A stretch of 64,000 bases of DNA, from IMG/VR virus record IMGVR_UViG_3300025141_016022; one strand, 5' to 3'. The position numbers were made by a program, and so were the translations under genes. Positions 24,752 through 51,984 of this stretch are shown piece after piece (within the stretch, counting starts at the first letter, position 1; the number at the start of each line of letters is the position of its first letter). This DNA comes from a virus. The notes below the pieces were generated by a model that saw only the letters and a program-made list of their open reading frames with translations, ran no database searches and was not told the origin of the DNA.

Positions 24752-25387
24752 ATGATTATTACAGAGAAAAGGATAAGAGAAATTGTTCTCGAAGAAATTA
24801 TAAGAGAGCAAGAAGAAGTCAATCAAGATTGTCCAATTCCATTTCTTGCTGCCATATTAGCCTCTGAAGCTCCCAATAGTGAAAGAGAGATGAGTGCCGT
24901 ATATGATGTTATTATGAAACGAGCAGAAATAGGCTTTAAAGAAGTAAATACGGTCGATGGACAATTAAGAGTTCCCAGGCAATTCTCTGGATATACAAGA
25001 TTTAGACCAGACGATACTGCATTTATTGCATACTATAGTGGTACTGCTCCAGATTCTGAATATTCAGTTTCAGCAGATAGAGTAGAAACAGAGAAGCTTA
25101 TAAGAAGAAATCAATTTAAAAGAGCATGTGGTGTAATAGTCTCAGATTTTCAAGATCCCGGTAACCCAGATGCACCTACATATGGAGCAACTCATTTTGT
25201 AAATCCAAGAGCAGCATCGACAGATAACAAGTGGTGGGAACTAGATACGTTTAGACCGATTCCGATTAATAATGGATATATAGGTGATCATCTTTTTGGG
25301 TGGGACTTGACAACAAGACAGTCAAGAGAATCATATTTACAGTTTAGATCTAGCCATCCAGAATTTAGCAGTCTCTATCCGGATTAA
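24752..25387 (+). CDS. SleB-like cell-wall hydrolase with shared leader (MIITEKRIREIVLEE)
   Basis: ILASEA..AVYDVIMKR, RQFSGY, GATHFVNP, IGDHLF. Confidence 0.7.
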   Translation: MIITEKRIREIVLEEIIREQEEVNQDCPIPFLAAILASEAPNSEREMSAVYDVIMKRAEIGFKEVNTVDGQLRVPRQFSGYTRFRPDDTAFIAYYSGTAPDSEYSVSADRVETEKLIRRNQFKRACGVIVSDFQDPGNPDAPTYGATHFVNPRAASTDNKWWELDTFRPIPINNGYIGDHLFGWDLTTRQSRESYLQFRSSHPEFSSLYPD

Positions 25388-25390
25388 GCT

Positions 25391-26050
25391 TTAATCTTCA
25401 AATTTTCTCAGCCTGGCAACACCATCTGTCACAGTAACATACGTCTGGTGTGTAACCCAGTCGCCTGCATTGATATATGTTTTAATATTCTGATCTTCGT
25501 CAACCCATATTAAAGCTTCTGGTATGTGTGTATGACCCATAATAAACACATCAACTTTGGGATGGTGTCTAAGAATATTTATAATTGATCTTAGCTTGTG
25601 CTTCTTAATTTGAATTTCCGTCCACCATGTTGTAAAGTCAAAGTTAAAAGTGAATTCAAGTATATTTTGAATAACAGATAGAAATTTAACAAATACTCTA
25701 TTTGCAAGAGCACCCTTGTCGTAAGAATCGCCGTGTTCAACTCTAAACACTCGGCCTTCATCTTCAAAGTCATACCTTTTAACAAATTCAACACCCATTA
25801 TTTTTTTACCAACAACTCCCATTAAACCTTCGTCATGATTTCCAACTACATAGATAATTCTTTTTGCATCACCCATTTTTTCAAGTATCTGAAGACATCT
25901 TTCTGTAAAGACAGGTATCTTTATAAAATCTATAATATCACCAGCGAGAACAAGCTCATCACAATCCTCAGACTCTAAAAATGATAAAAGCTCGAGAGAC
26001 TTATAGAACCTAGTCCCAATATGTGTATCAGATATAATAACTCTTTTCAT
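25391..26050 (-). CDS. Calcineurin-like metallophosphoesterase (LpxH-like)
   Basis: ISDTHIG, AGDIID, GNHD, HGD, GHTH, NAGDW. Confidence 0.85.
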   Translation of the reverse strand: MKRVIISDTHIGTRFYKSLELLSFLESEDCDELVLAGDIIDFIKIPVFTERCLQILEKMGDAKRIIYVVGNHDEGLMGVVGKKIMGVEFVKRYDFEDEGRVFRVEHGDSYDKGALANRVFVKFLSVIQNILEFTFNFDFTTWWTEIQIKKHKLRSIINILRHHPKVDVFIMGHTHIPEALIWVDEDQNIKTYINAGDWVTHQTYVTVTDGVARLRKFED

Positions 26051-26143
26051 TGAACAGTTTGCTAACCTTATATTAATATTATATACAGAACTACAAGGTG
26101 TACTATACTTGTGTTACTGAAGTTTAAAAATAAAGGAAAAAAA

Positions 26144-26386
26144 ATGACAGATACAAAAAACACATCAATGGCTTTTAGCGATGAGGTAATTGGACAAATT
26201 GCAAAACTAGTCCAACTAGCAATTATTACAGGGACAGATATTGTTGATAATTTAAGGATGATGCGTGTAACTCTTGATGGAGAAACTGATGTTCTTACAC
26301 TAACTGAAGAATATCGTGAAATATCAGAGGCTCAGGTTGAAAAGCTTATGCAAGAAGTAGAGGCACTTCAATCAGAAGAGGTGTAA
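26144..26386 (+). CDS. Hypothetical protein
   Basis: ATG at 26144 behind AAGGA preferred over GTG 26111. Confidence 0.7.
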   Translation: MTDTKNTSMAFSDEVIGQIAKLVQLAIITGTDIVDNLRMMRVTLDGETDVLTLTEEYREISEAQVEKLMQEVEALQSEEV

Positions 26387-26389
26387 GCT

Positions 26390-26761
26390 ATGGAAGATAG
26401 ACTCTTAGAAATATTTAGGAGAAGAGAATCTTTTATGAAGAGCCTTGGTGATTCTTCCGGAGAATCTATGAACTGGCCACTTGATTTATCAAAAAAAGAA
26501 AATCAGCAACATGTCAGGGATATGGCACTAAGAGGTGTCGAAGAGATGTTTGAAGCACTTCAGCATTTAAAAAACTGGAAACCTCATCGGAAAACAGAAA
26601 TAACTGAATTTGATAGAGAAGAATTTCTTGAAGAGATTGTAGATGCATTTAATTATTTTCTATCGATTCTTGTCCTTACAGGATTTGATGATAATGATTT
26701 AATTGATGCATACAGAAGAAAAGACAAGATTATAAATGAAAGATTGAGGACTGGATATTGA
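26390..26761 (+). CDS. All-alpha NTP pyrophosphatase (dimeric dUTPase/dCTPase/MazG-like)
   Basis: EEMFEALQHLKNWKPH...EEIVDAFNYFL...YRRKDKIINER. Confidence 0.8.
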   Translation: MEDRLLEIFRRRESFMKSLGDSSGESMNWPLDLSKKENQQHVRDMALRGVEEMFEALQHLKNWKPHRKTEITEFDREEFLEEIVDAFNYFLSILVLTGFDDNDLIDAYRRKDKIINERLRTGY

Positions 26762-27669
26762 AAGTTAAAAAGCTATTTGAAGATCAGAATTATTTTTCAA
26801 AGATGATAGGTACTGTGTGTAACACATCAGAAGATCTTGATAACTTTACAAAAACCCTATCTCTTGCACTTCATAAAGAAGTAAGTGATCTTGTATCTGC
26901 TACTAACTATAGATCTCACACTGATGATAGTATGGTTCCAGATGCAGACAAGATACTTTTTGAATCAGTAGATGTAATTAGATATGCAGTAGCTATAATG
27001 AATGCGTGGAGCATAACTCCTGAAAAATTTCAAAAAGCATGGATACTAAAGGACAAGTATCTTTCACTTTCAAGAAAGATTGAAGGAAATACTTGGAAAG
27101 GGGAAAAAGTTGCAATTGTTGATATGGACGATGTTCTTTGTGAGTTTAGAGTAGGATTTTCAAATTGGCTAAATAAAAACTACAGCGTTATAACTGATGT
27201 AGAATCAAAAGAGTATTATTTTATTAATGCTCTTGAAAAAGCAGGTATAAACCCAGAGGGAATATTTTTAAAATTTGTATCTGAAGATGGATTCTCATCT
27301 TTAAAGCCAGCATCCGGTGCAATAGATTTTATTAAATCTCTTCAGGAGAAAGGTTATTTTATTCATATATTGACTGCAAGGCCAGGAGATAATCTAAGAT
27401 GTCTTTATAATACACTTGACTGGCTTGACTCAAACAATGTCTGCTTTGACAAGGTTAGCTTCTCATCAGAAAAACTGAGATGGTGCATGCAATCAGAATA
27501 CTGGTCATCAGGTGCAATAGAGTTTGCAATAGATGATTCACCTAAACATGCAGCAGAATATGCAAAACATGATATAAGAGTTCTTTTGCCAAGAAAGACT
27601 TATAATACAGAGGTTCAAAGTCTTTCAAATGTAATTGTCTATGATTCTTTCCTAGATATTGATATTTAA
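26758..27669 (+). CDS. Fusion of a dUTPase/MazG-like domain and a HAD 5'(3')-deoxyribonucleotidase
   Basis: N-terminal KEVSDL...FESVDVIRY; C-terminal DMDDVL, ILTAR, IDDSP. Confidence 0.72.
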   Translation: MKVKKLFEDQNYFSKMIGTVCNTSEDLDNFTKTLSLALHKEVSDLVSATNYRSHTDDSMVPDADKILFESVDVIRYAVAIMNAWSITPEKFQKAWILKDKYLSLSRKIEGNTWKGEKVAIVDMDDVLCEFRVGFSNWLNKNYSVITDVESKEYYFINALEKAGINPEGIFLKFVSEDGFSSLKPASGAIDFIKSLQEKGYFIHILTARPGDNLRCLYNTLDWLDSNNVCFDKVSFSSEKLRWCMQSEYWSSGAIEFAIDDSPKHAAEYAKHDIRVLLPRKTYNTEVQSLSNVIVYDSFLDIDI

Positions 27670-27768
27670 TTTATCCAATGATTAAGAATTTTCTGCAGCA
27701 GTTGAATAATTAAACATGTTAACTGCTATAATTGTAGAAATAAATTTATTAACGAAATAGAGGAAAAG

Positions 27769-28701
27769 ATGAAGCTAACTCAAAAATCTTTAAAGAAAAT
27801 TATTCTTAGCGAGCTTAGAAGGTCCATATCAGAACAAGCACGAGATGCGGGTGACGTCCCCGGGGGCCAGGCACCAGCACGAGGCACCCAAGCCTATGCT
27901 GACAGCCAGAGAGAAATATGGGGTGTCTCTGATGAAGATCTCGAAAGAGAGCGCATCCAGAAACAGGCAGACGAGCGAGGAATATCTTTTGAAGAAATGG
28001 AGGCTATTCTTGCTCATATGGATTCCCCAGAGTACCGCAGAGAACAATACCTAAGACAGCAAGAACAGGCACGTGCCCATGCACGGGATGAAGGAAACTG
28101 GCCTGAGCCAAGGACTGGCAATATGTATGAAATCATTGGTGATCCACACAGCGTTGATATTCAAAACGGATTGAAGTGGTTGTGGCTTGGTGCAGTCCGG
28201 GACTCTAAGGTTTTGGAAGGTGTTGCTAAACAGTTCACCCCTAGAGTTCCAGCTGAGGGTGAGTACTTGGCAGGTTTTTCTTCTCCGATGTGGGCATTGG
28301 TTGATCACAGGGACGAAAATGGTGTATATACACAGCTTGTCACTCAGCCCGTGGGTGAGAGGCGAAGAGGCGCAGAGATATGCAGAATCACCGTCGAATA
28401 CATTATGAAAGTATCGGGCGATCAAGTAGATTGTGAAATGGCATGGAACAGTGATATGGTTAGACCAGGTAGCCAGCTTGCGCGAATGATGGACGCAGCA
28501 GTTCAGGCAGTAAATGGTTCATCAGCTTCTTTCCCTGCATCGCTAAAATTCTTTCCTGATGGACGAACTGAGGGAGCAAACGCAGAAGTTCCAGCCTCAG
28601 AAGACGAAGTACCGGTTGCAATTCTTGAATTCACAGGAGGCGAGGTTGTGGCGCTGGTCAACATGGACTTCGGTTTTCGCGTTAGCCCATATGCTCGATA
28701 A
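27769..28701 (+). CDS. Hypothetical protein with shared leader (MKLTQKSLKKIILSEL)
   Basis: GAGGA SD; leader motif; cargo not recognised. Confidence 0.75.
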   Translation: MKLTQKSLKKIILSELRRSISEQARDAGDVPGGQAPARGTQAYADSQREIWGVSDEDLERERIQKQADERGISFEEMEAILAHMDSPEYRREQYLRQQEQARAHARDEGNWPEPRTGNMYEIIGDPHSVDIQNGLKWLWLGAVRDSKVLEGVAKQFTPRVPAEGEYLAGFSSPMWALVDHRDENGVYTQLVTQPVGERRRGAEICRITVEYIMKVSGDQVDCEMAWNSDMVRPGSQLARMMDAAVQAVNGSSASFPASLKFFPDGRTEGANAEVPASEDEVPVAILEFTGGEVVALVNMDFGFRVSPYAR

Positions 28702-28813
28702 TAGACTGACAAATTATGAACACTTCGCATTGTTTTTTTCATAGTTGAGTTTTTTTATATTGTAAACTTTAATTTCTTGCTGTATTGTATAAATGTAAAG
28801 CACAGGAGGAAAT

Positions 28814-29242
28814 ATGTTTCGTTTTACCCTACTCACGCCCCTACTTTTTTCACTCTCAGCATACGGAGATATTCCACCAGATAATATTCGCATTGAATCT
28901 ACTCTGGTTGGAAATGCTCCTATAGAGATTCCTGAGAGTGATTGCTCTTCTCCCATTTCAAACTCTATTGTTAAGTTTTTAGATACGGGATCAATGTGCA
29001 TTGAAGGTGTTCGTGCCCATATTGATGGAAGAGGTTGTAATACAATTTTCTGGGAAAGGGGTTCTGATAATGAATATATCTTCTTTTGCAAGACAAGAGA
29101 TACATGTGATATTACTCATGTAGGAAGATTTATTGCATACCCGACTTCACTTCCCGCACCTGAGATTTATTCTAGAAATCCTGCTATTTGCGAAGATTCA
29201 AATTATATTATTTTTCATGAACAAAATAATGTTAGTGAATAA
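28814..29242 (+). CDS. Hypothetical secreted Cys-containing protein
   Basis: AGGAGG SD; signal-peptide-like N-terminus MFRFTLLTPLLFSLSAYG. Confidence 0.65.
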   Translation: MFRFTLLTPLLFSLSAYGDIPPDNIRIESTLVGNAPIEIPESDCSSPISNSIVKFLDTGSMCIEGVRAHIDGRGCNTIFWERGSDNEYIFFCKTRDTCDITHVGRFIAYPTSLPAPEIYSRNPAICEDSNYIIFHEQNNVSE

Positions 29243-29272
29243 AATTAACTAGCGTTAAATATAGGAATACAG

Positions 29273-30259
29273 ATGCCAAAAAATAAAAACTTAGAACCAG
29301 TTACTTTTCCAATGAAGATTAGATTTGACGAGGATCCGAGCACTGAGTTTAAGAATGATCTTGAATCAATTAATATTTCACTACTAGACCATCCCGACCC
29401 GCTTAGGGCAAGAAGGATGGTGTACCAATTTATTAATGCAACATGGGAAGATGAGCCCGGTCTTCACAATCCAGACGATGTAGATGACTGGAAGCTTTTT
29501 CAAGCACTAGAAGCTGCGCTTCAGTTCAAAGCTTTGCCTACAGTCTTGGAGACGCTTGATTTTACATTTAGAATTGAAGGAATCGATGTCCAGACAGTTA
29601 CACATTTAATTCGGCATAGAACAGGATCTTTCTCTGCTCAGTGTACAGGAGACAGGTGGCAATCTCATGCAAATGCATTAGTTCCCGGTCCCATTCAGAA
29701 TAGTCCTGAGATTTATGAAAGATGGAAAAGTCTAGTTGTTGAGTCAAAGAAGCTTTATTGTGACATGATTGATACAAGGAAGATTTCGATTATGGATGCA
29801 CGAACAATTCTTCCAAAGTGTCTCGAGACACATTATTACGCACGCTTTAATATGAAAGATCTTCTAAACTTTATTAGACAAAGAATGGATAAGCAAATTC
29901 AGCCAACAACTGACAATATTATTGCATATCAGATGTACTTAGCCGTTGCAAGAATATTTCCAGAAGTTACAACAGTCGTGAATATGCACTCACCTTCGAG
30001 ACATTATGTTGCTACTGCAAGAACCGGAAAGGCAACAAATCTTTATTTTCCAGATAAAGATTCTGATTCGTTTGACTGGCACCCTAATGACTTTATCTAC
30101 TCAGCATATCGCGATGAAGTAAATGGTACAGACCCAGATCTCGGCGGAAGAGAAAACTTTAAATTTTCAGAATTGGCATCAATGTACGATAGACAGGTCA
30201 ATGACCTTGTAGAAAAGTACAATGAGTGGAAAGAAACTGTCGGATTTGAATCACCATAG
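29273..30259 (+). CDS. thyX: Flavin-dependent thymidylate synthase-like protein (divergent ThyX)
   Basis: VLETLDFTFRIEGI, HLIRHRTGSFSAQC, DARTILP, NMKDLLNFIRQR. Confidence 0.78.
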   Translation: MPKNKNLEPVTFPMKIRFDEDPSTEFKNDLESINISLLDHPDPLRARRMVYQFINATWEDEPGLHNPDDVDDWKLFQALEAALQFKALPTVLETLDFTFRIEGIDVQTVTHLIRHRTGSFSAQCTGDRWQSHANALVPGPIQNSPEIYERWKSLVVESKKLYCDMIDTRKISIMDARTILPKCLETHYYARFNMKDLLNFIRQRMDKQIQPTTDNIIAYQMYLAVARIFPEVTTVVNMHSPSRHYVATARTGKATNLYFPDKDSDSFDWHPNDFIYSAYRDEVNGTDPDLGGRENFKFSELASMYDRQVNDLVEKYNEWKETVGFESP

Positions 30260-30267
30260 GCGAAAAA

Positions 30268-30684
30268 ATGTCTTTTTCAGATTCATTTAGCATGATTGAA
30301 TCATGGCTTTTTGAAAAGGATTATGAAGTCTTGTACGAGACTGATGGTCAAGATGCTGTTTATTTTGGCTGTAAGCAAATTATTCTTAACAGTAGAAACC
30401 ATATTGAAAAGAGACTATATATACTTTTGCACGAATGTGGTCACATACTAATAAATAGCAACTCTTTCGACAGGGTATTTTCCCTTAGCAGCGAAACAGA
30501 AGCTATAATGGGCGGTAGAAAAGTTTCTAGAAAAAGAAGAGTTGCAAAGCTAACAGAGGAAATTGAAGCCTGGAAACGAGGTGAGAATCTTGCAAGAAGG
30601 CTTGGGATAGAAATAAATGAAGAAAAGTTTGATAGAATACGTGCGAATGCTATTATGAGCTATATCGAATGGGCAAGAGATTAG
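30268..30684 (+). CDS. Small zincin-like (HExxH) protein, ImmA/IrrE-like
   Basis: LLHECGH followed by EEIEAW. Confidence 0.6.
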   Translation: MSFSDSFSMIESWLFEKDYEVLYETDGQDAVYFGCKQIILNSRNHIEKRLYILLHECGHILINSNSFDRVFSLSSETEAIMGGRKVSRKRRVAKLTEEIEAWKRGENLARRLGIEINEEKFDRIRANAIMSYIEWARD

Positions 30685-31493
30685 CTCACTGAATGTTTAA
30701 TATTTGTGTAGAGCTTAGTTAGAAATTTCTCTAGAGATTTTCTATCATTCTTTAATGTTTCTTTATATCTGGAAACTATTCCAGCAAGATCAGAGTCTTG
30801 CCTTTTGATAAGTGAAAGCGCTTCTTCTTGCGTGTATTTATCTAAAAGCTGCTCAGATGCTTCATATGCAAATGCATCAATTTCATTATGAAGGCTAAGG
30901 TAGTCTTCCTGCGTTCCGCCTTTTGACAACTGCTTGGGATCGTTCTGTAGTTCTTCCCATGCCTCTTCTTCACTAATCCCTTTGCTTTCTGCCTGTTTCT
31001 TAAGTTGATTATAGTGAACTAGTTCATGGTTGATAGTTCGTGATATTATCTTTGATAGCTCTGTAGAGTCTAAGTCATCCATATCATACTCATCAGAGTA
31101 GGGTCTAAACTCAAGCCATATAATGTGTTTCCCATTTTCAGGACCTCTGTATTGACCTCTCATCATCCAGTTGCTAGGATATCCTCCATATTCATCTCCC
31201 GGTCCTAAAGTATATAGCTCATTATCTGTAACACTGAGGAAAAAATATAGATCTGTACCAAGATCACTAGCAGATGTATTTAGTGCATCCATAAGAGTTT
31301 CAATTGCAGGAGTTGACCAGGTCGACTCATCAACAAGATCTACATCATTTTCATTGTGAGCCATTTCCCAAAACTTAGAATCGACAATTCCTTGAAAAAT
31401 AGCTGATGTCAATTCTTTATCAGGTGCTGTTGATTCACACAGCAAGATCTCTTCCTTGATGATCTGTCTTAATTGCCTGCGTGTGATTTTCAT
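30681..31493 (-). CDS. Zincin-like (HExxH) protein with shared leader (MKITRRQLRQIIKEE)
   Basis: NHELVHYNQ...EIDAFAYE; leader motif. Confidence 0.75.
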   Translation of the reverse strand: MKITRRQLRQIIKEEILLCESTAPDKELTSAIFQGIVDSKFWEMAHNENDVDLVDESTWSTPAIETLMDALNTSASDLGTDLYFFLSVTDNELYTLGPGDEYGGYPSNWMMRGQYRGPENGKHIIWLEFRPYSDEYDMDDLDSTELSKIISRTINHELVHYNQLKKQAESKGISEEEAWEELQNDPKQLSKGGTQEDYLSLHNEIDAFAYEASEQLLDKYTQEEALSLIKRQDSDLAGIVSRYKETLKNDRKSLEKFLTKLYTNIKHSVS

Positions 31494-31540
31494 GTTTAAA
31501 CCCTGTTAGATAATAATTATTTCACTTTTTCTAATTTATT

Positions 31541-31569
31541 TTAAAAACTACTTGCGACAAAGTTATAAT
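31541..31569 (+). promoter_or_regulatory. Candidate sigma70-type promoter TTAAAA-N17-TATAAT
   Basis: TTAAAA 31541-31546, TATAAT 31564-31569. Confidence 0.5.
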
Positions 31570-31599
31570 CATCTATACTATAAACAAGGAGAAATAGTA

Positions 31600-32040
31600 A
31601 TGAAAGCGTATCTTGCAAGTTCATGGTTTAACCCTGTTGCAAATCAAGAGGTTGATGATATTATCTCATCACTTGAGAACAATAACTTTGAGGTATTTTC
31701 ACCTCGTGATTTTTTTGTTTGTCCGCCAACTGCTGACCTGGCAACACAAAAGTCAACCTATGAGGGAAATCTTGAACATCTTCACAAGTGTGATTTTATG
31801 GTTTGTAATACTCATGGAAAAGATATGGGTTCAATTTTTGAAGCTGGATATTTTAAAGCACTTGAAAAGCCTATCGTTTATTTCTGCGCTGGGCTGCCCG
31901 CAGGGGCGGCATTCAACTTAATGTTGGCACAGAGCGGAGTAAAAGTATGCACATCTATTGATGAGCTTAATGACTACATGGCACGCTGTAACTCAGAGGG
32001 TAAGCTTCTTTTCGAGCCATACTATGGAAATATTGAGTAG
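31600..32040 (+). CDS. Nucleoside 2-deoxyribosyltransferase / nucleotide N-glycosidase family (NDT/MilB/DNPH1-like)
   Basis: YLASSWF, VFSPRD, DMGSIFEAGY, NLMLA; ATG 31600 behind AAGGAG. Confidence 0.82.
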   Translation: MKAYLASSWFNPVANQEVDDIISSLENNNFEVFSPRDFFVCPPTADLATQKSTYEGNLEHLHKCDFMVCNTHGKDMGSIFEAGYFKALEKPIVYFCAGLPAGAAFNLMLAQSGVKVCTSIDELNDYMARCNSEGKLLFEPYYGNIE

Positions 32041-32059
32041 AATTTAATAACATCGTTGC

Positions 32060-32088
32060 GTGTAAATTTGGCTAATTTATTTTATAAT
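32060..32088 (+). promoter_or_regulatory. Candidate sigma70-type promoter GTGTAA-N17-TATAAT for dnaE
   Basis: GTGTAA 32060-32065, TATAAT 32083-32088. Confidence 0.5.
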
Positions 32089-32104
32089 AAATTGAGGAAT
32101 ATAA

Positions 32105-35100: not shown

Positions 35101-35662
35101 AGATGAGTTCAAAACTGGAAAGGTACTAAATCACAGACAACTTTACACTGTTATCATTGACAACTATGACCTCCTTAAGAAGGGCAGACATGGAATGACA
35201 AAGACTGCTGTTAAGAAATTGTTAAAGGAACAGGACTACATTCCAAACTTTATCGATATCAAGCTTAACGAGGTTGATGGAATGCCTGACTGGAATCGTG
35301 CAGAGAAGATTGGAAACAGTGTTGAATTAATGGCAAGTGCAGATGAGACTCTTGTATTCCCGCCAAGAATTATGGCAAAGATTGAAAAGGCAGATGTTCG
35401 CCCAGTCACTGCACTCTCGGGAAAAGAAAGAGATATTGTCTGGTTCTGTATTCAAACAATGGAAGAGAGAACAACAAAGAACAACAAGAAGTTCTATCGG
35501 ATGAAGGTCATGGATAATAACTCTGAGAGCTGCTGGCTCCGTGTCTGGGGTAGGTTTGATGATCCCCCTGACCTATATACCATGTGGCTGGCTGAAGTAG
35601 CTTCTACAGAGTCCTGGGGTTGTTCTACATCATCATATAAGATGAAGAAGCTAGAGGTTTAG
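32105..35662 (+). CDS. dnaE: DNA polymerase III alpha subunit (family C)
   Basis: PHP domain LHAHS, LTDHG, GVE, ADSHY; GPGRGSGAGSL; PDIDTD; GRHAGG; LKFDFLGL; YRPGP; YGFNKSHA. Confidence 0.96.
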   Translation: MSSIIKPKKFVGLHAHSGTGSPYDGLGYPNQHIDFVLSNEMNAWALTDHGNGNGLAHAHAYAKKLKKKGRDYRQIYGVEFYFVPSLLEWRESYEAHREEVRAARSEKKLKESTDINSEDEISGGLIIENEDETKNDFEKNDWKRRYHLVVIAKNQIGLQNLFTLVKKSYTDGFYRFPRIDYNLLKMHGEGLVVSTACIGGYPSSLIARGEATGKSDSDIILDLENMSDRFIDAVGRKNFNLEVQFNSLSMQHKTNKHLISLHEKTGIPLVATADSHYYGRNMWEARELYRKLGRMGARGDAMPSLPAFEDLKCELYPKNAEQMWDEYKQHASSYDFYKGKDQLIADAIERSYDIAWEQCEDVWFDEEAKLPRFGTPTDSAFNQLARRVKEALVKEDLHKDQEYVDRAKMELDDIKYLGFENYFLTMTKVFDLASQSTIIGPGRGSGAGSLVNYLLGITTTDPIKYGLLWERFLHRAKAGWPDIDTDAGDRDVLINASRELFGEESVVPVSNFNTLKLKSLVKDVSKFYGIDFGEVNAMTNTLEKDVMHKAMGDHEERSTYVLTHEDCMKYSQKYSDFMDEYPKVSEHVQNLFMESRSIGRHAGGVLICPNLEKHMPVIKVRGELQTPWSEGMNFRHLETNGFLKFDFLGLTTLKMVEDCTRLILRKQGNLSPTFADIQKFFDEKMNCRYNDLDDQNVWEHVYHKGRFVQVFQFTQQGARNFCTSAKPSTIEELATITAIYRPGPLSAGVHRKYVKAKKSVEDGKPIEYDHPVIEEILSETYGFISFQEQFMLLAQKLANFDKGASDKMRKTLVKKSLDSNAAKVQERIDLHKKFVNGAVEISGMDKDKAEKLYETIEFFSGYGFNKSHAVSYAIDSYYSAWLHTYYEKEWLATCLQTQNGSSKFGKVISEIKSLGYTILPPDINASSDVWVYSDERGGFVPPLTAIKGVGDAAVAEIMERRPFSSLDEMMFTEDGKWRPSKMNKTCFSSLSLVEAFGSLDEFKTGKVLNHRQLYTVIIDNYDLLKKGRHGMTKTAVKKLLKEQDYIPNFIDIKLNEVDGMPDWNRAEKIGNSVELMASADETLVFPPRIMAKIEKADVRPVTALSGKERDIVWFCIQTMEERTTKNNKKFYRMKVMDNNSESCWLRVWGRFDDPPDLYTMWLAEVASTESWGCSTSSYKMKKLEV

Positions 35663-35693
35663 CCAGATATATATTATCTGAGTGTGACACAGC

Positions 35694-37025
35694 ATGAAGA
35701 TAACAGAGTCAAGAATCAGAAGAATTATAAGAGAAGAGCTTCTTCAGGAATCTAGTGACTTTAGATTTGACATTAACAAAAGTGTATATGTACTTCCTGA
35801 TGCGCAGGTAGAGATTGAAAAAGCGGGGGATGGCTGGCTATTAAAGATCAGGAATTTACAAGCAGGACAATTTGGTTCAGTTCCTTTGAACATCTACGGA
35901 CCATCCTACATGCTTGATTCGCTTGTACCACACGGAGCAGAGCCGGGCGATAAGCATCATAGGTTCTTGCAATCTGTAGGCTTTCCATTTGATGATCATC
36001 CTCCCTACGAAACCTGGGAGAATGAATTTCCCGGGGGCGCCAGAAGATTTATCACTGATGGTGACTACCTTGATCAGTACCTTGAAAGATTTCACAAAGA
36101 TGAGGAATTTACTAGTGAGTTCAGGCTAAGCTACTTTGGCTACGCTCAGGATGTCTTACAGGGAATTCGCTTAACGCTTGATAGAATTGACAGCTATATA
36201 CATAGCAATAGGGTTCAAAATATCATAGCTAGGGATCATGATGATTTTAAAGATAAGCTTGCAAAATTTTTCTCAATAAGTGAAATAAACATTGTTGATA
36301 AGACAGCACGAGATACGGCTGGTTTCTATATGCCATCTGAACACAGTATCACAATTGCAGTTGCAAGAAACCCGCGTAAGGTGACAAGGGAAACAACCTA
36401 TCATGAATTTCTTCATCACTGGCAAGAAATTTTTGATGAACCTGAAAATTTTGATTGGAAGTTTCGTCCACTTGAACGTGAAGATGAGACAGGCTTAGGG
36501 CAAGAAGATGAAACATATGAAGCTCTTTATTCACAACTAATGGCTGCCTCAAATATTCCAGTAAGAAGGTGGCTTAGGAACCTCGGAGCAAGCTATCTTA
36601 ATCTTCCTACTAATTTTGACAGATATACTGTTAGAGAGTCAATGAGAAAAGCTGAAAGCTTTGAGATGTCATTAAGCGCTGATGATAAGGGGGAGTGGAG
36701 TGGTTTTGATTCAGTCTTTAAGGCATTTTACCAGTTTCAGGAAAACCACTTTACAATGTCCCTAAGACGACTCTTTATGATCTTAAATAACTTAGGATAT
36801 GATTTAGATTTAACTAGTGATAATAGCATTGAAAGATTTAAAGAGGGATTAAATTTATTTTTAAGATTTGGATTTCCACACAGCGTATATCTTAAAAACA
36901 GGGATTTGATTGCGTTACCTTTGTTTCTTAAGCCTACACCAAAGAATATAAATTTAATCACAAGAATAGGTGATACTCTTGCTTCTAATGAAATACATTC
37001 TGACAGTGGTACTGAAACTGTATAA
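35694..37025 (+). CDS. Leader-bearing zincin-like protein (MKITESRIRRIIREE; HEFLH)
   Basis: Leader motif; TAGFY...ITIA...TYHEFLHHWQ. Confidence 0.75.
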   Translation: MKITESRIRRIIREELLQESSDFRFDINKSVYVLPDAQVEIEKAGDGWLLKIRNLQAGQFGSVPLNIYGPSYMLDSLVPHGAEPGDKHHRFLQSVGFPFDDHPPYETWENEFPGGARRFITDGDYLDQYLERFHKDEEFTSEFRLSYFGYAQDVLQGIRLTLDRIDSYIHSNRVQNIIARDHDDFKDKLAKFFSISEINIVDKTARDTAGFYMPSEHSITIAVARNPRKVTRETTYHEFLHHWQEIFDEPENFDWKFRPLEREDETGLGQEDETYEALYSQLMAASNIPVRRWLRNLGASYLNLPTNFDRYTVRESMRKAESFEMSLSADDKGEWSGFDSVFKAFYQFQENHFTMSLRRLFMILNNLGYDLDLTSDNSIERFKEGLNLFLRFGFPHSVYLKNRDLIALPLFLKPTPKNINLITRIGDTLASNEIHSDSGTETV

Positions 37026-37065
37026 AACAATTATTAAGAATAATTATATTAAGAGCAAAGTTATT

Positions 37066-37998
37066 ATGAAAATCACACACAAGCGGCTAAAAAGAATTAT
37101 AAGAGAAGAGCTTCTACGTGAGGCCAGTGGAGCTGCAGGTCCGGGCACAGTTCCAGGATACAATTATATTGAGGTATCTGAGTACAGAGGTAAACCTGCT
37201 CACATGATAAATGCTAAGCATCTCAAAAGAACTTTGAAAGAGACATTGGGTATAAAGCAACATGGAACGGCTGACGACCACTTCCACCAGGCGGGCTTGG
37301 GAGGTATTATTTCTGGTTGGGGAAGCCTAAGTAAGAAACTAACAAAAATCTGGAGCGATCGAATCCCCCAGGGACAAGGCGGTCATGGAACGGGATGCCA
37401 AAGCTGCTGGGCAGACTTCTTTATTCTTGTAGATCTTGGAAAATGTGGAGCATCTCAGGCATACTTGATCCCTGGTGTTAGCGTTGTTGAAGATATTCCA
37501 ATTATAGTATTTGGAGATATTAGTCTTGAGCCTCTAATTGATCACATAGCAGATGAAGCAGGCTTGGCGATAATTGGGAAAGGCGAAAAAAGAGATGATG
37601 CTGAACAACAGACTGTTGAAAATGAGTGGGCAGAATGGACAGGTAGACAGTATGAGCTTATTAGTAAATTTCATAATAAGGTGTATTATGGAGGCGAGAT
37701 GCTTTCCGACCTATTACACGATGCATTTGTTTTCCGGACACCAGTAATTGTTGTGCTCCCAAGGTCATCGCTAATTAAAGATATTGATCCGTGTGTCATT
37801 GCTAAAAATTATCAACTTCTTAGAGCGCCACCGGTGACACCGGTGGCTCCAGCTGTTAAGGATGAAGTAGAGCTTGATCCTGCAAGCGTGGAGATAGATC
37901 CCCAGGGCCAGCAAATAGATATTGATTCTGAGATATATGATGCGCCTCTTGAGCCGTATAAATCTCCCTTTAGAACTCCAATAGGTAAGCAAGATTAA
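37066..37998 (+). CDS. Leader-bearing hypothetical protein (MKITHKRLKRIIREE)
   Basis: In-frame ATG at 37066 starts the shared leader; preceded by AATAATTA. Confidence 0.75.
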   Translation: MKITHKRLKRIIREELLREASGAAGPGTVPGYNYIEVSEYRGKPAHMINAKHLKRTLKETLGIKQHGTADDHFHQAGLGGIISGWGSLSKKLTKIWSDRIPQGQGGHGTGCQSCWADFFILVDLGKCGASQAYLIPGVSVVEDIPIIVFGDISLEPLIDHIADEAGLAIIGKGEKRDDAEQQTVENEWAEWTGRQYELISKFHNKVYYGGEMLSDLLHDAFVFRTPVIVVLPRSSLIKDIDPCVIAKNYQLLRAPPVTPVAPAVKDEVELDPASVEIDPQGQQIDIDSEIYDAPLEPYKSPFRTPIGKQD

Positions 37999-37999
37999 A

Positions 38000-40900
38000 A
38001 TGAAGATAACAGAATCCAGAATCAGAAGAATCATAAGAGAAGAGCTTCTTAAAGAAGATAGCGAAGATACCGTTCTAGGAAAAATGAGCTGGCCCATGGC
38101 GCCTGGTGTCTCAGACCCGTTTGGTGAACTACGATCCTCAAATCCCCCACCAGTTCTTTCAACATCAATGTGGTATGACCTCGATGGTGACGCAATGCTA
38201 TCGAGTCATAAGATTGAATCAAAGAAATTTATTGAACACCTTATGGATACTATAGAGCACAGAGGTGGAGTTGCAAACTCTGTTGCAAATGCTGGACACA
38301 TCGCAGCTGTCTACAAGGAAATGGGTGTTGAGACGCGAATAGCTCCATACCCTGGGCCTAAGCATTGGGGTGCAGGAGATTATGAGTCATGGGGAGAGTT
38401 TCCAGGATCAGCAAGAAGTTTTTTTAAAAAGTATGACCCATGGGTTCTTGATGCGGACGAGATATTTCTCGTAACAGTTGATAATACTTCTTACAGGGCT
38501 CCTGGCCAAAAAGTTACAGAGATTGAACCTGAAGATATGGAGATGGGAGTTGAATACGGAGGAACAACTGATCCCGCAGCTGGCAAGATTAAGCGAGCAC
38601 TTAGCTCTCTACTTGGTGACCTTACGCTTCCTGCCCATTACGATCCTTCACCAGTTCAACTGACCGCTGCTAAATCATGGCTGTCTCAATGGCTTCCAGG
38701 AGGAAATCCATCTCCTGAAATGGCTAGGGCAATGGCAGCTACAAATCCATACAATGCTGTCTGGGAAACATTTCTAGGTCCAATAAAAGAGTGTCTAAGC
38801 GGTCAAGCAGCTGCCAAAGAAGAAGCTACTCGAAGAGCATCAAAGCAGGATGATTTCTATTCTAGAGAAGGGGCAGACATAACCTTTGCTGGAGGAGCAA
38901 CGTCAGAGGATACCCAGGCTGTTCTCAAACAAATGCAAAAAACTGGGGAGGCAGAAAAGATATCAGATGAATCAATTGGGACTTCTTCTGCTGGTCTGTG
39001 TGCATCAGCCAGAGCATCAGAGCTTATAGCATTGTTAGTTTTGCCATCTGGACAGTTTACTTTAGCCGGAAGGATTGCGCTAGCAGCTGGTCTCGTTCAT
39101 CTTGCAAGAGGCTCTCACAGAGAGGCTATGTTTGAACTACTGCTTGGTGCATTTGAGATTGTAGCAGCAACCAAAGCGATTGTAAGATATACCGCAGTAG
39201 TTAAAAGTGCACTTAGGTCAGGAAAGCTTCCGGCAGATGACATTCTCGAAGAAATGATTAAAGCTGGAGTATTTGAAGAGCATGCTGATATAATAAGGCG
39301 GTTAGCAAGACAGCCAAAGATGGAGGAAGAAGTTCAAGCTATGCGCCAAGAGATGGCAAGAGTAATCGAGACAATGGATAGTACAGATCCCTTGAAGCCT
39401 TATCTGGATGCATATGTTAGAGGAGCCAGTTCAGATGAGCTTAGGGGAATATACAAGGCTGCCAAGGCTGAGATTGAGTCTGGAGCTCGCTGGGACATTC
39501 ACACGTCAACTAGACGTGCAGCTGATATTGATCCAGATGAGCTCGATGCGTGGCTAGAAAGACTTGAGGACTTACCGCTTACATCATCTCCTGGATCTAG
39601 AAAAGCTGTAATAGACAAGTATATAGAATCTCAGATCAGTATAAATAGAGCTCTGGAAGCTGAACAGGCAACAGCAAGAGGTGCAGGTCGAGGGAAATCG
39701 ACTCCGGAAAATCCATGGGGAAAGGGTCCTGAGCCTAAAGCAATTAGACCCGCAGGATCTAAGGCGCCATTAGCACAAACAGCCAATATGGGAAGACAGA
39801 TTATTGATTTAGCATATGCCAAATTACGATCGATACCTGATGGTAAAATTTATAAGATTGCAAAATTCGAAAGAGGTCACTTCAGCGACGTTGATAGAAT
39901 TGAAATTAGACTGGATGGTTTGTTTGATGTTGATGATATTGAAAAAATTGTTGACGACTCTCTCGGTGACTATCTAAACACGCTCACACCCCCGCAGGCA
40001 TCAAGGTATAAGCAAGATGTTATTGAAGAAATCCAAAACCTTGACTTTGTAGTAGGACCAAGGACTCCTGACAGGGTGGGACAATATGTCCAATCCGGAC
40101 CTGGTCAAAGAGGCCAAGTCTGGGTTGAACCGTTTGACAAAGAAGAGTGGAAGGCTATAGTAGGAACCAATAGAGATCGACCAGATTTTGAAGAAGCCGT
40201 TAAAAAAGCTTTTATCGACGCTCTAGATTCTGGAACAAAATTTGATTTGCCAGAGCAGGTGAGAAATACACTTTCTCATGAACTTGGTCACTGGATAGAC
40301 CTCACTATCGAGGGAAATAAATATGATCACCTTATTGTAGATTCAAATGGAATTCCCATGAGGGAAATCGATGGCAAGCAGATGACATTTGATCAAGCTG
40401 TCAAAGAAAGAAAAGTTAAAACAATAGAAGAATGGCTACAGGACCCGCCGGATATCTTTGGAGATTTCGTAACGCAACCCTGGCATGGAAGAATTGGGGA
40501 GCTAGATGCTGAAATAACAAGAGGCGTAACAGATTTTCAAGATTCCCTAGAGGCATCAATTAAAAGAATTCGTGACCTTGATGATCAATATAAGCTTCCC
40601 TGGGATATCTCTCCCAGAAAGCCGCCGCGAGATCAACAGCCAGTAGCATCTGATAGTCCGTCAGCATGGGATAGAAGAAGTACTACCAAACACCCATCAC
40701 AGACTACTCGCAGACAAGAGCCGAAAAAATGGGATGATGCAGAGACAAAGTCAGCAATGCACAAAGAAGAGATGGCAGAGATCGGCTTGGACGAACTAGA
40801 TTATACATATCAAATATTGACTGATAAAGATCTATTTAGGGATATATTTGTCGGAGACTACTTTCCTATTGAGCCTAACCGTGGGTATCTTGATGATTAT

Positions 40901-41077
40901 GGATGGGTAGGAAGTGCAGAAAATATCGTAGATCAAAAGATTGATGACGTTCTTTTCGAACCTGGCGGATTATGGGACTGGGCTAGAAAGGAAGCAGGAA
41001 TAAACGTTGAGTACATTGACATGCAGGAGTCAGTTGTATATGTGTCTCGGTGGATGAAACTTGCAGGTATAACTTAA
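38000..41077 (+). CDS. Leader-bearing multidomain protein (1025 aa) with hydrophobic hairpin and zincin-like domain
   Basis: MKITESRIRRIIREE; hydrophobic LIALLVL...IALAAGLV; LSHELGHW...ELDAE; C-terminal RWMKLAGIT. Confidence 0.75.
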   Translation: MKITESRIRRIIREELLKEDSEDTVLGKMSWPMAPGVSDPFGELRSSNPPPVLSTSMWYDLDGDAMLSSHKIESKKFIEHLMDTIEHRGGVANSVANAGHIAAVYKEMGVETRIAPYPGPKHWGAGDYESWGEFPGSARSFFKKYDPWVLDADEIFLVTVDNTSYRAPGQKVTEIEPEDMEMGVEYGGTTDPAAGKIKRALSSLLGDLTLPAHYDPSPVQLTAAKSWLSQWLPGGNPSPEMARAMAATNPYNAVWETFLGPIKECLSGQAAAKEEATRRASKQDDFYSREGADITFAGGATSEDTQAVLKQMQKTGEAEKISDESIGTSSAGLCASARASELIALLVLPSGQFTLAGRIALAAGLVHLARGSHREAMFELLLGAFEIVAATKAIVRYTAVVKSALRSGKLPADDILEEMIKAGVFEEHADIIRRLARQPKMEEEVQAMRQEMARVIETMDSTDPLKPYLDAYVRGASSDELRGIYKAAKAEIESGARWDIHTSTRRAADIDPDELDAWLERLEDLPLTSSPGSRKAVIDKYIESQISINRALEAEQATARGAGRGKSTPENPWGKGPEPKAIRPAGSKAPLAQTANMGRQIIDLAYAKLRSIPDGKIYKIAKFERGHFSDVDRIEIRLDGLFDVDDIEKIVDDSLGDYLNTLTPPQASRYKQDVIEEIQNLDFVVGPRTPDRVGQYVQSGPGQRGQVWVEPFDKEEWKAIVGTNRDRPDFEEAVKKAFIDALDSGTKFDLPEQVRNTLSHELGHWIDLTIEGNKYDHLIVDSNGIPMREIDGKQMTFDQAVKERKVKTIEEWLQDPPDIFGDFVTQPWHGRIGELDAEITRGVTDFQDSLEASIKRIRDLDDQYKLPWDISPRKPPRDQQPVASDSPSAWDRRSTTKHPSQTTRRQEPKKWDDAETKSAMHKEEMAEIGLDELDYTYQILTDKDLFRDIFVGDYFPIEPNRGYLDDYGWVGSAENIVDQKIDDVLFEPGGLWDWARKEAGINVEYIDMQESVVYVSRWMKLAGIT

Positions 41078-41078
41078 A

Positions 41079-43934
41079 ATGAAAATAACAGAGTCAAAAA
41101 TAAGAGAGATTATAAGAGAAGAAGTAGAGTTTGTCTTCTCTGAGGCTATAGATCAATCTAAACTTTCACCTATTTCTATGGGAGGAAAAGAGAAGAAGCC
41201 TGCTCGCAATCGAGAGGATGAGGAGGGGGGTGCTCCGATAACCACTACAGGAGACGAAAGCGACGAAGAAAGTGAAGGGGAGCCCGAGGAATCATTTAAA
41301 GATGCATTTAACAGGGCGCGTGAAGAAGGAAGGGATACGTTTGAGTATGATGGTGATGGAGACGGCAAGGCAGAGACATATCACACTAAGCATCCAGAAG
41401 AAATGTCCCAAGGGCCAGGCAAAGCCCCGGTCACTGAGCCCCCAAGAACTGATCATGATTTTAGTGCTCAGCCTACTGACCTTAGTAAGCCAGAAGATGT
41501 TGTCTACGCAGATCAGCATGCAAAAGGAGGTGATAGTCAACTTATTCTACACAATGACCGAAAGAAAAGACATGGCGGTCTGTGCTTTATATTCAATCCA
41601 GTTTATGAAGATACCGGAGAAGAGGCACAGACTCGAAATCCGCTTGACTTTGAGCCAATAGCATATATAGATGGCAAACCAGCTAAAGAGCGCCCCAAGA
41701 CTCTTGCTGGTGGCAAGTGGACAATGTCAGAAATGTGGTGGTTTGAAATATCAACTGGAAGGAGGGTAGTATCAAATCCGAAATGCAATGAAGTTACACC
41801 AGGGTGGGAGAGTACAGTTATTAATTGGGAGGAATGGGATCGAGATGAGCACAATGCTCTTATGGACAAGCTAGACTTGGTACTGCTCAGTATTGCAATA
41901 TTTGTTGGAGGATCTACTTATGGTATTGGAGATATTCTTACTGATACTGCATCTGCTGGATTAATGCTCCTAAAAGATCCTCCTGATTATGTTTCTGCCG
42001 GGATTATCTTAGGTGTTACTGCAACTATTGTCGGAAATGGTCAGATTGCTAACAGATTAAGAAAAGCCGGCGGTGCGGGTGCCCGTGTTGTAGATGATGC
42101 GCTTTCTGAGGGAACATCCATAGGTAGCAAAGAGTTCAGCGATGCTATTTCAGATCATGTTTCACCTGAAGATATCACAGCTGGTAGAAAATCTGCGCAA
42201 GAGTATTTAGATAAATCTACAGATACAATTTATCTTCACATAAGAGATAGAGTCCCACCAGCCCGAGCAAGTGAAGCACGTGAAGTAGTTGATAGTGCTA
42301 AGAAAAGAGCAATGCAAGAAACAAACAGACTGTCACCTCAGCGCACCTCTCCTGGATCAGTAGGAACGCCAGTTGTTAAACAGACAACTACAGCTACAAT
42401 CTCAAAAAAGATTGATGAACCGGCGAAGTTATCTTACTATCAAAGTCCCGAAATGTCCAAAGAGTTTGGAGCTGATATAACTGACTTTGTACGGGATTGG
42501 GATGGGAAGCTTCCCCTTTCTGCAGAAGGCACAGTCTTTCTTGCAAAATCTCGAATCTGGCCTACAGATGTAGCAATTAAGATTATAGATAAGCCTGGCG
42601 GTGTTGCTGATGCTGGTGTCTTATCCTCACCTGCCTGGATTCTTAGAAATAGAGATAAGCTACCATCTGATCTTGCTGAATCACTTCCTCGCGTCTATAA
42701 GATCGGAAGCACAGTAGGACCAGACGGGAAAGCATATGACTATATTGTGATGGAGAAATTAGTTTCCGGACCAGCAAAAGATACTATAGGAAATATTAAT
42801 ACGCAACTTAATCCTGGTATTATTGATCATTACTATGTCGGACGCGGATCTGAAATGGCACCTGATATTATGAAGAACCCGGATCAATTACATAGCTTTG
42901 CAAAGAGATATGATGCAGGATTTAAATCTCAACAAGATATCCTCAAGCTTTATGATCCACGACATCCAATTAGGGCAGGAGAAAATTTAGGAAAATCAGT
43001 CACACCGGAAACTGATGCTGTCATTAGTAGAATAAAGAGCGATAGATTTTCTCAAGAGTTCGCATCAGATGTGATAAAATATACTGGAGACACAAGTAGA
43101 ATCACTGGGCCAGTTAAACAACGTCTGGATAATGTAGACTGGAAAAGCGATGACATATACGGATTTGCTGGGGGATACAGCTTAAGCACGACTGAGATAA
43201 ACATGCTTAAATCAATTTCTGCAGCTAGAGTAAATAAACTAGACAATGTTATCTCACATCTTCAACAAGCAAGAAGAAATCCTGATCTTATTCCTACAAT
43301 GACAAAAGATGAAATTTCTAGATCACTAGCAATTGTTAAGAGTGAAAGAAAGAAAGTAATACAAGACATTGGAGATACATCTTATCACGCACGAGAAGCA
43401 GAACGCATGGAGTATGCTCTCGATTATAATCCGGCAATTACTCGAGATTATGTATCTACAAGAAAAGCAGCTGATAGTGATACCTTTGTCGGACGACAGA
43501 GCAAAAGAAGCGGTGATATCATAGATATTAAAGCAGCAGATGCTCCTTTTGATCCTGATCTCGACCCTGTGGTTGCACGTGCAGAATATATTGACAAAGA
43601 ACTGGCAAGGAGAGGTTTTTTTAGAGTAGATGTTAGGGACCCTAATAAGATGTTTAGAGCAGATGTCCAATCCCCGAACCCAGTTCAAGCCGATATTACT
43701 CTCAACTATGTCTTACAACCAGGTCAAAAAATAATGTATAAAGGAGAGCCAATGACAATAGTTGATCCTAGCACTCCCTTAGACAGGACTTTAGAAATGC
43801 CGAAACTGGATCCTACTCTAAGACCAAATCCGCAGTTTGACGAAGAAGATATTATCAAAGGGACAAAATATAACCCGCTTGAAGAAGGAATAGACTTAGA
43901 TAGGTGGCTTTTGATTGCTGGGATTTTAGAATAA
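41079..43934 (+). CDS. Leader-bearing multidomain protein (951 aa) with hydrophobic hairpin and protein-kinase-like domain
   Basis: MKITESKIREIIREE; hydrophobic LVLLSIAIFVGG...AGIILGV; VAIKII, LPRVYKIG, YIVMEKL, DVRDPN; C-terminal RWLLIAGILE. Confidence 0.7.
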   Translation: MKITESKIREIIREEVEFVFSEAIDQSKLSPISMGGKEKKPARNREDEEGGAPITTTGDESDEESEGEPEESFKDAFNRAREEGRDTFEYDGDGDGKAETYHTKHPEEMSQGPGKAPVTEPPRTDHDFSAQPTDLSKPEDVVYADQHAKGGDSQLILHNDRKKRHGGLCFIFNPVYEDTGEEAQTRNPLDFEPIAYIDGKPAKERPKTLAGGKWTMSEMWWFEISTGRRVVSNPKCNEVTPGWESTVINWEEWDRDEHNALMDKLDLVLLSIAIFVGGSTYGIGDILTDTASAGLMLLKDPPDYVSAGIILGVTATIVGNGQIANRLRKAGGAGARVVDDALSEGTSIGSKEFSDAISDHVSPEDITAGRKSAQEYLDKSTDTIYLHIRDRVPPARASEAREVVDSAKKRAMQETNRLSPQRTSPGSVGTPVVKQTTTATISKKIDEPAKLSYYQSPEMSKEFGADITDFVRDWDGKLPLSAEGTVFLAKSRIWPTDVAIKIIDKPGGVADAGVLSSPAWILRNRDKLPSDLAESLPRVYKIGSTVGPDGKAYDYIVMEKLVSGPAKDTIGNINTQLNPGIIDHYYVGRGSEMAPDIMKNPDQLHSFAKRYDAGFKSQQDILKLYDPRHPIRAGENLGKSVTPETDAVISRIKSDRFSQEFASDVIKYTGDTSRITGPVKQRLDNVDWKSDDIYGFAGGYSLSTTEINMLKSISAARVNKLDNVISHLQQARRNPDLIPTMTKDEISRSLAIVKSERKKVIQDIGDTSYHAREAERMEYALDYNPAITRDYVSTRKAADSDTFVGRQSKRSGDIIDIKAADAPFDPDLDPVVARAEYIDKELARRGFFRVDVRDPNKMFRADVQSPNPVQADITLNYVLQPGQKIMYKGEPMTIVDPSTPLDRTLEMPKLDPTLRPNPQFDEEDIIKGTKYNPLEEGIDLDRWLLIAGILE

Positions 43935-51293: not shown

Positions 51294-51551
51294 ATGAAAC
51301 CGGAGATAGATATGGGCGACAATGAGATTGACATTAAAGAGGCAAAAGCCTTTATCGAGGGAGAGAGGCTCGGCCTGGTTGATAGAATTGTAGGAAGGCT
51401 TATTTCAAGAAAGTTTTTTGTTTTTTTAACTGCCACAGCACTTCTAATCTGGAGCAATTTAGATCCAGATACCTGGGGAATGATAGCAATGATTTACATT
51501 GGAGGCCAGACAGTAATTGATGCAGCAATTTCCTGGAAACATGGCAAATGA
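51294..51551 (+). CDS. Small two-TM membrane protein, holin-like
   Basis: SRKFFVFLTATALLIW and WGMIAMIYIGGQTVID hydrophobic helices; 85 aa. Confidence 0.55.
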   Translation: MKPEIDMGDNEIDIKEAKAFIEGERLGLVDRIVGRLISRKFFVFLTATALLIWSNLDPDTWGMIAMIYIGGQTVIDAAISWKHGK

Positions 51552-51952: not shown

Positions 51953-51984
51953 CCTCATACAAGAGATTGTGTAATATTATCATC

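Follow-up and report, generated by a model that had tools for sequence, protein, structure and literature searches.

A shared, exchangeable N-terminal leader on unrelated proteins of uncultured marine T4-related phages: a putative counterpart of the T4 capsid targeting sequence

The viral stretch IMGVR_UViG_3300025141_016022 from the IMG/VR database (64,000 nucleotides; the whole stretch is called the window here) contains seven genes whose products begin with the same short leader and then continue into unrelated proteins. This leader, referred to as the type-A tag, belongs to a real and very widespread leader family, apparently undescribed; the motif was not found in any phage context in the literature searched. 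Sequence comparisons suggest that it is probably a much-expanded analogue of the capsid targeting sequence (CTS) of phage T4, used by uncultured marine T4-related myoviruses. A first-pass annotation of the window had proposed that the leader is a portable head-packaging tag, such that any enzyme fused to it is loaded, matured and injected as one of an exchangeable set of effectors. The portable, CTS-like tag is supported, strongly but circumstantially, by a prohead protease of the Peptidase_S77 family and a T4-type head module in the same genome, by the linkage of tag genes to the S77 gene, by tag-like core proteins, by scaffold-type C-terminal tails and by the swapping of both cargos and tags; that the carriers are loaded, matured and injected as effectors we infer.

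All seven gene starts named in the annotation were verified. The genes, and the C-terminal tails of the two largest products, are as follows (aa, amino acids; bits, score against the leader profile described below).

24752-25387, plus strand: leader gene 1, 211 aa, divergent leader MIITEKRIREIVLEE, cell-wall-hydrolase-like body, 33.6 bits
27769-28701, plus strand: leader gene 2, 310 aa, leader MKLTQKSLKKIILSE, body without known family, 34.5 bits
30681-31493, minus strand: leader gene 3, 270 aa, leader MKITRRQLRQIIKEE, HELVH body, member of a large marine family
35694-37025, plus strand: leader gene 4, 443 aa, leader MKITESRIRRIIREE, HEFLH body
37066-37998, plus strand: leader gene 5, 310 aa, leader MKITHKRLKRIIREE, body unknown, 39.4 bits
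38000-41077, plus strand: leader gene 6, 1025 aa, leader MKITESRIRRIIREE, hydrophobic hairpin, HELGH, scaffold-type C-terminal tail
41045-41074, plus strand: C-terminal tail of gene 6, SRWMKLAGIT, motif in common with the tail of the phage's gp22-like scaffold
41079-43934, plus strand: leader gene 7, 951 aa, leader MKITESKIREIIREE, hydrophobic segments, kinase-like region at about 445-800, scaffold-type tail
43899-43931, plus strand: C-terminal tail of gene 7, DRWLLIAGILE

Exactly seven open reading frames (ORFs) of the window start with M-[KI]-[IL]-T-x3-[IL]-[RK]-x-I-[IV]-x-[ES]-E, and a six-frame search with a regular expression for the leader core found these seven only, every one at an ORF start. 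The scan with a leader profile suggested in the annotation, using a profile built from 87 leaders, recovered the seven copies at 32-39 bits together with a related protein of the upstream head module, p80, at 19.8 bits; the next best match scored 5 bits. The bodies do diverge, as had been reported: from residue 25 to the end they are without significant similarity (best pairwise BLASTP E 0.05), and none of the seven proteins is above threshold in Pfam or PHROGs. The hydrophobic-x-Glu end of the leader is likewise present in every copy, at residues 17-22, and each window leader has a second [IL]-x-E at residues 12-15. The leaders at 24752 and 27769 are divergent copies, and homologues of gene 1 bear the canonical leader MKITRGDLRSIIRE. 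In gene 5 the leader begins at ATG 37066, internal to a longer GTG-started frame (36970-37998), and the shorter gene is the likelier of the two.

The type-A tag is an amphipathic N-terminal helix of 14-22 residues with the logo MKITK-x-Q-L-[KR]-x-I-I-K-E-E-[LI]-x-x-h-L-x-E. Conservation ends after position 22, with the information at background from position 23, and extends to positions outside the search pattern (K5 0.80, Q7 0.68, L/I16 0.67, E22 0.41). The degenerate, back-translated leader matched at least 120 IMG/VR stretches (176 ORFs on contigs of 4-293 kb), where the listed tag ORFs are often side by side, two to four together, and encode proteins with a median length of 107 aa. Five large IMG/VR genomes (185-293 kb, 82-100% complete) have 4, 9, 9, 17 and 13 copies, and in these the reversed pattern gave 0 matches compared with 51 for the real one. 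The chance expectation for the degenerate DNA pattern in IMG/VR is far below 1, against the 120 or more stretches matched; the excess over expectation, together with the reversed-pattern control, therefore excludes chance as the cause. A search of 1.84 billion representative proteins with a 30-position profile gave 12,617 clusters, counted at 50% identity, with E <= 0.001.

The common 5' end might be a nucleic-acid feature, either a recombination or cassette boundary or a translation-initiation enhancer, with the peptide as a by-product. Such an explanation is very improbable: tag genes do behave as swappable cassettes, and the codons are rich in A, a frequent property of sequence just behind a start codon, but synonymous positions vary freely. 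Over 169 copies, Ile3 is encoded by ATC 87 times, ATT 55 times and ATA 27 times, Leu8 by all six codons, and Lys and Arg alternate; the DNA of the seven window leaders differs at synonymous sites and their upstream regions are dissimilar. The free synonymous variation argues for selection on the tag peptide. Upstream of tag genes nothing is conserved in the DNA beyond an ordinary Shine-Dalgarno sequence, and some in-frame internal copies of the tag have no start codon, neither of which would be expected of a DNA element.

Comparison of related loci revealed that cargos change behind the tag and tags change on the cargo. In the relative L099, where the orthologue of gene 6 has a C-terminus 85% identical to that of the window protein, synteny runs from the 3' end of this orthologue into the orthologue of the gene at 44032, and the slot of the 951-aa kinase-like protein is occupied by an unrelated protein of 259 aa with only the first 16-17 residues in common. 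The 270-aa HELVH family to which gene 3 belongs (at least 120 clusters, 40-100% identical) has N-termini that are type-A, degenerate type-A or a second, type-B tag, MKLL[LMF]ENWRK[YF]LNE (MKLLLENWRKYLNE), which replaces the MKITK leader on orthologues of the window 30681-31493 protein (P0046-P0132). The type-B tag has 14 residues, its conservation stopping exactly at Glu14, and was found in at least 120 IMG/VR stretches (L138-L253) on bodies that are larger than those of type A (median 221 aa) and often enzyme-like. The two types are found together on four contigs and have the skeleton MK-h-x4-h-[RK]-x-h-[LI]-x-E in common. In both, the conserved part stops at a Glu after which a protease of the T4 type would be predicted to cut, and the T4 CTS has a comparable outline of MK, a hydrophobic face and then h-[IL]-x-E. 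Judging from these orthologues and syntenic loci, the tag is exchangeable in both directions, cargo behind tag and tag on cargo.

The cargo labels given in the annotation (zincin, SleB-like hydrolase, kinase-like) were upheld in part: the HExxH motif is present in the proteins of 31493 (minus strand), 35694 and 38000, while the zincin fold, the hydrolase and the kinase were only partly verified. In the 31493 protein, a comparison with 60 homologues showed residues E157 and H160 to be invariant and H156 to be almost invariant. The AlphaFold2 model of this 270-aa protein, made with a 60-sequence alignment, has a predicted local distance difference test score (pLDDT) of 90.7; residues 5-19 form the leader helix (pLDDT 58-72), residues 20-25 a loop, and values above 90 are reached in the body, which starts at residue 26. 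The helix is thus set off from the body in the model, which fits a leader that lies outside the folded domain. A Foldseek search with the model found nothing in the PDB at E <= 0.001, and VIA-align gave Z scores of 4.4-5.3, within the noise range, to DUF885, an HExxH domain and M1 aminopeptidases, so the predicted fold is at best weakly zincin-like; with no clear fold match, the term zincin goes back to the conserved HExxH alone.

For the 24752 protein the match to Pfam Hydrolase_2 (PF07486) reaches 18.1 bits, below the cut-off of 27, and two homologues (45-49% identity) bear a precomputed PF07486 match, which suggests, through these homologues only, a Hydrolase_2-like family. Residues 445-800 of the 41079 protein are kinase-like only by ESM Atlas features (0.92) and by structure (TM-score 0.34-0.41). 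A listing of the domains behind the leader, as the annotation had advised, gave 17 different Pfam families, one member each, among the 55 longest IMG/VR tag proteins, most of which match none.

The window corresponds to part of the 123-kb ENA contig ERZ27249081 k141_647373, with 0 mismatches across the 25.6 kb compared. Outside the window, the analysis of the contig covered about 60 kb, as far as the terminase, beyond which lie another 63 kb. The window itself encodes a PolA fragment, a gp32-like protein, RecA, a 5'-3' exonuclease, DnaB, ribonucleotide reductase, ThyX and DnaE, as well as a ClpP-like protease and an amidase. A T4-type head module was identified on the contig about 19 kb upstream of the window, with the following order toward the window.

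Part 1: TerL, Portal_T4 (PF07230, gp20 portal), a 284-aa protein, Peptidase_S77 (PF03420, T4 gp21 family; L136:5882-6496)
Part 2, after S77: p135, p80, p199, p192, the 483-aa scaffold, Gp23 (PF07068)
Part 3, after Gp23: gp13, two giant sheath proteins, T4_baseplate, then the window

This T4-type gene order identifies the phage, an uncultured marine one, as a T4-related myovirus. The closest cultured relatives of its portal family are from Microcystis phage Mel-JY01, Flavobacterium phage immuto and Rhodothermus phage RM378, all three of which have an identical order of head genes.

Tag genes are linked to this head machinery, and above all to the prohead protease. About 40 of the 120 listed type-A loci hold a TerL/portal pair, and 97 large neighbours of tag genes included 23 portals and 10 terminases. 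In 17 of the 23 listed type-A loci with S77, a tag gene is encoded on the strand of S77 and no more than 1 kb from it, and in 13 of these it abuts or overlaps S77; a tag gene is also within 1 kb of S77 in all eight type-B loci that hold the protease. In genomes of 150-300 kb, a gene placed at random would be expected this close to S77 in about 1-2% of cases, whereas 17 of 120 loci were observed. All five large tag-bearing genomes encode S77. The S77-adjacent tag positions correspond to those of the core genes 67, 68 and 22 in T4. The abutting genes differ between loci (104, 217, 180, 239 and 341 aa, one of them an AAA_33 kinase), so this position is a variable slot.

Within the head module of the source contig, p80, encoded just after S77 and p135, has the N-terminus SKLKQIIKEEKKAL, which reads MSSLTVSKLKQIIKEEKKAL, and a body resembling that of an L101 tag protein. 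The p135 protein, from a family conserved next to S77, has the tag-like sequence SDLKAIVKECLVEILKEG; the 80-aa core protein gp67 of T4 contains IDLIKEEKIA. The 483-aa scaffold has 24 [LI]xE sites compared with 9.6 +/- 2.6 in composition-preserving shuffles, and for comparison T4 gp22, which is cut by gp21 at L/I-x-E (PMC9026906), has 16 such sites in 269 aa.

The scaffold of contig k141_647373 ends in DRWAVLAGIKN (L136:9926-9958), and related endings are found on the scaffolds of immuto (SRWQKLAGIIK), Mel-JY01 (ERMKKLAGIVK) and related loci. The same RW..LAGI tail ends the two largest tag proteins of the window (38000 and 41079) and the L099 orthologue, and p135 ends in a weaker form of it, NWAALAFGNK. 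The tail may be a second prohead-anchoring signal. Co-folding of the gp23-like capsid protein with the 70 C-terminal residues of the 38000 protein scored 0.01 against a mark of 0.32, which is neither for nor against binding. TATAAAT-like boxes are present upstream of 38000, 24752, 37066 and two structural genes; about 20 such 7-mers are expected per strand in this AT-rich window, so the boxes give no claim on timing.

The most serious alternative starts from the same head genes. The tag would mark components of the prohead core or scaffold together with their protease sites, and the proteins would enter the prohead only to be mostly degraded and expelled at maturation, like T4 gp22, gp67 and gp68, or would be polyproteins that are cut up, and not delivered effectors. 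The tag-like N-termini of p80 and p135, the scaffold tail on two tag proteins, the small size of most tag proteins (median 107 aa, as given above) and their acidic or low-complexity sequence just after the tag, and the spacing of internal tags about 130 aa apart, suggestive of cleavable linkers, all fit such a role. It is nevertheless unlikely, as several of the cargos are large, well folded, strongly conserved and catalytic-looking, as exemplified by the confident model and the invariant or nearly invariant HExxH of the 31493 family. The kinase-like region of gene 7 and the cell-wall-hydrolase family of gene 1 point in the same direction, and the free replacement of bodies fits accessory cargo better than a structural scaffold.

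Further observations on the head region were made in passing. Two adjacent, very large sheath paralogues (Phage_sheath_1, 1072 and 1041 aa) are encoded upstream of the window (L135:6748-13126), while most myoviruses have a single and typically much shorter sheath gene (T4 gp18, about 660 aa). Throughout this clade, the portal and prohead protease genes flank a gene for a conserved, family-less protein of about 280 aa (L136:5028-5882). It has homologues in about 30 loci, including immuto and Mel-JY01, and is a candidate core or assembly factor, T4 having no counterpart of such size there. In an uncultured relative, a gene for ribosomal protein S21 is found inside the head module just after the prohead protease region (L024:8757-9002), and an S21 gene is annotated at the matching place in Mel-JY01 (L127, 16746-16973). 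Two window proteins have homologues in leader-bearing IMG/VR loci, usually with the leader genes on one side and the terminase on the other: an 85-aa protein whose C-terminal part has a hydrophobic segment (51294-51551; about 27 loci) and a 159-aa protein with a signal-like N-terminus (51967-52446; about 12 loci). These might be lysis or membrane proteins.

In the mechanism proposed for the CTS-like tag, the tag helix would confer on any carrier protein an affinity for the scaffolding core that underlies assembly of the prohead shell. Once the carrier is in the prohead, the gp21-type S77 protease would cut after the Glu of [IL]-x-E, at Glu14 and/or Glu19-22, and the freed cargo would stay in the head with the DNA. 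Entry of the cargo into the host cell would be a further step.

A number of observations weigh against the tag being a CTS analogue. It has no significant similarity to the T4 CTS beyond the pattern MK...h-[IL]-x-E, the peptide being too short for a statistical test. Many of the top profile matches hold two to four in-frame tag copies in one predicted polypeptide (P0147, P0004, P0148, P0149, P0152 and P0158), and one in three internal copies lacks an initial Met. The tag peptide thus need not be N-terminal and may be mainly a processing site or linker; the multi-copy polypeptides may be products of recent gene fusion, or else polyproteins with a cleavage site at every leader. Certain cargos resemble ordinary cytoplasmic enzymes (HAD-like, AAA_33 kinase), and loading as many as 17 different proteins, a few of them larger than 100 kDa, would cost capsid volume. 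In the window, the tag genes are found among genes for nucleotide metabolism and replication, at least 43 kb from the head module; the ip genes of T4 are likewise outside its head cluster.

Nor was a cultured carrier of the tag found among the phage records and genomes searched, which counts on the same side. Searches by tblastn of 50,697 phage records with the 1025-aa protein, the consensus 22-mer and a 119-aa tag protein gave no carrier, where the low-complexity filter may mask the tag. The type-A pattern had 0 matches in nine cultured phage genomes, including P-SSM2, HTVC008M, HTVC010P, Syn9, P-SSP7, immuto and Mel-JY01, and the type-B pattern 0 in the five cultured genomes tested. A 45-nucleotide blastn search of cultured phages gave noise only, the match in P-TIM68 falling inside the 3' part of a gene. 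The cyanophage family PhCOG173/DUF680, a possible match, appears unrelated: no leader of this kind is described in the papers that mention the family, and none of the cyanophages tested has the strict pattern.

The last point on this side is the presence of ClpP-like homologues in all five large tag-bearing genomes, as in the window (20449-21051). As the ClpP-like gene is present in addition to the gp21-type protease, it probably does not encode the head-maturation protease here. The tag could instead be a signal for some other machine, be it a degron or adaptor site for the ClpP-like protease, a site for a chaperone or a modifying enzyme, or a signal for localisation inside the infected cell, with no role in the capsid; the position of the window tag genes among metabolic genes would agree with this. 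We regard this explanation as quite unlikely. ClpP is within 1 kb of a tag gene in only one of the 120 listed loci compared with 17 for S77, and the [IL]-x-E ending, the tag-like core proteins and the scaffold tails would be left unexplained. Leader recognition by a radical-SAM enzyme, as for ribosomally synthesised and post-translationally modified peptides, was rejected: PF04055 is absent from two tag-bearing genomes, G006 (100% complete, 9 tag genes) and G007 (96%, 17 tag genes).

The T4 CTS is the classic but narrow case, found on three or four small internal proteins. If the tag described here works in the same way, it would represent a cargo system that abundant phages of the ocean use generally and heavily. 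Proteins carried into cells, likely including counter-defence and host-takeover factors, could then be listed from sequence only, and natural loading tags would be available for the engineering of T4-like capsids. For studies of prohead core assembly, the tag proteins are concrete candidate substrates of gp21-type proteases. More tentatively, it is possible that interchangeable address tags of 14-22 residues, at least two in kind (MKITK..IIKEE and MKLLLENWRKYLNE), load dozens of enzymes per lineage, which are delivered with the DNA, in marine T4-related phages including jumbo genomes of 270-290 kb. The cargo would in that case be kinase-like, HExxH, cell-wall hydrolase, phosphatase-like and in many cases unknown, with thousands of ocean families, and the "injected proteome" of uncultured phages would be directly readable from sequence.

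Known systems resemble the tag to different degrees. Encapsulin cargo-loading peptides are short terminal tags that load diverse enzymes into a shell of the HK97 fold. Unlike the tag here they are C-terminal and uncleaved, and the shells are non-viral, such that the likeness is one of analogy only. C-terminal capsid-binding tails are found on the P22 and 80alpha scaffolds, and the herpesvirus protease and scaffold have such a tail in common. Similarly, the extreme C-terminal RW..LAGI is common to the gp22-like scaffolds of this clade, including that of immuto, and to two window tag proteins, although its capsid binding is putative and T4 gp22 ends differently.

In the giant phages phiKZ, 201phi2-1 and SPN3US, the propeptides of inner-body and ejection proteins are cleaved after S/A/G-x-E by a gp21 homologue. 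These large phages have many head-internal proteins, processed after Glu by a diverged gp21-type protease, and redundant cleavage sites in the propeptides (PMC9026906), a pattern that the phages studied here would share. The propeptides of the phiKZ type differ in being long, without a single stereotyped tag, and in their motif, S/A-x-E as opposed to [IL]-x-E.

The closest parallel is with T4, where the CTS is found on IPI, IPII, IPIII and Alt and is removed by the prohead protease gp21 (PMC3012670, PMC9026906); it has the sequence MKTYQEFIAE, and gp21 has the specificity L/I-x-E (PMC9026906). The tag differs from the T4 CTS in length (14-22 residues compared with 10), in the number of genes that carry it (4-17 or more per genome compared with 3-4 in T4), in the coexistence of at least two tag types, in the multidomain cargos of 100 kDa and in the internal copies, and it is known here from sequence alone. 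Like the CTS, it is a short conserved N-terminal peptide that ends in [IL]-x-E and is borne by otherwise unrelated, fast-evolving proteins, in a genome that encodes a gp21-type Peptidase_S77, a gp20 portal, a gp22-like scaffold and a gp23 capsid protein, with certain tag genes adjoining the protease and others scattered, as in T4.

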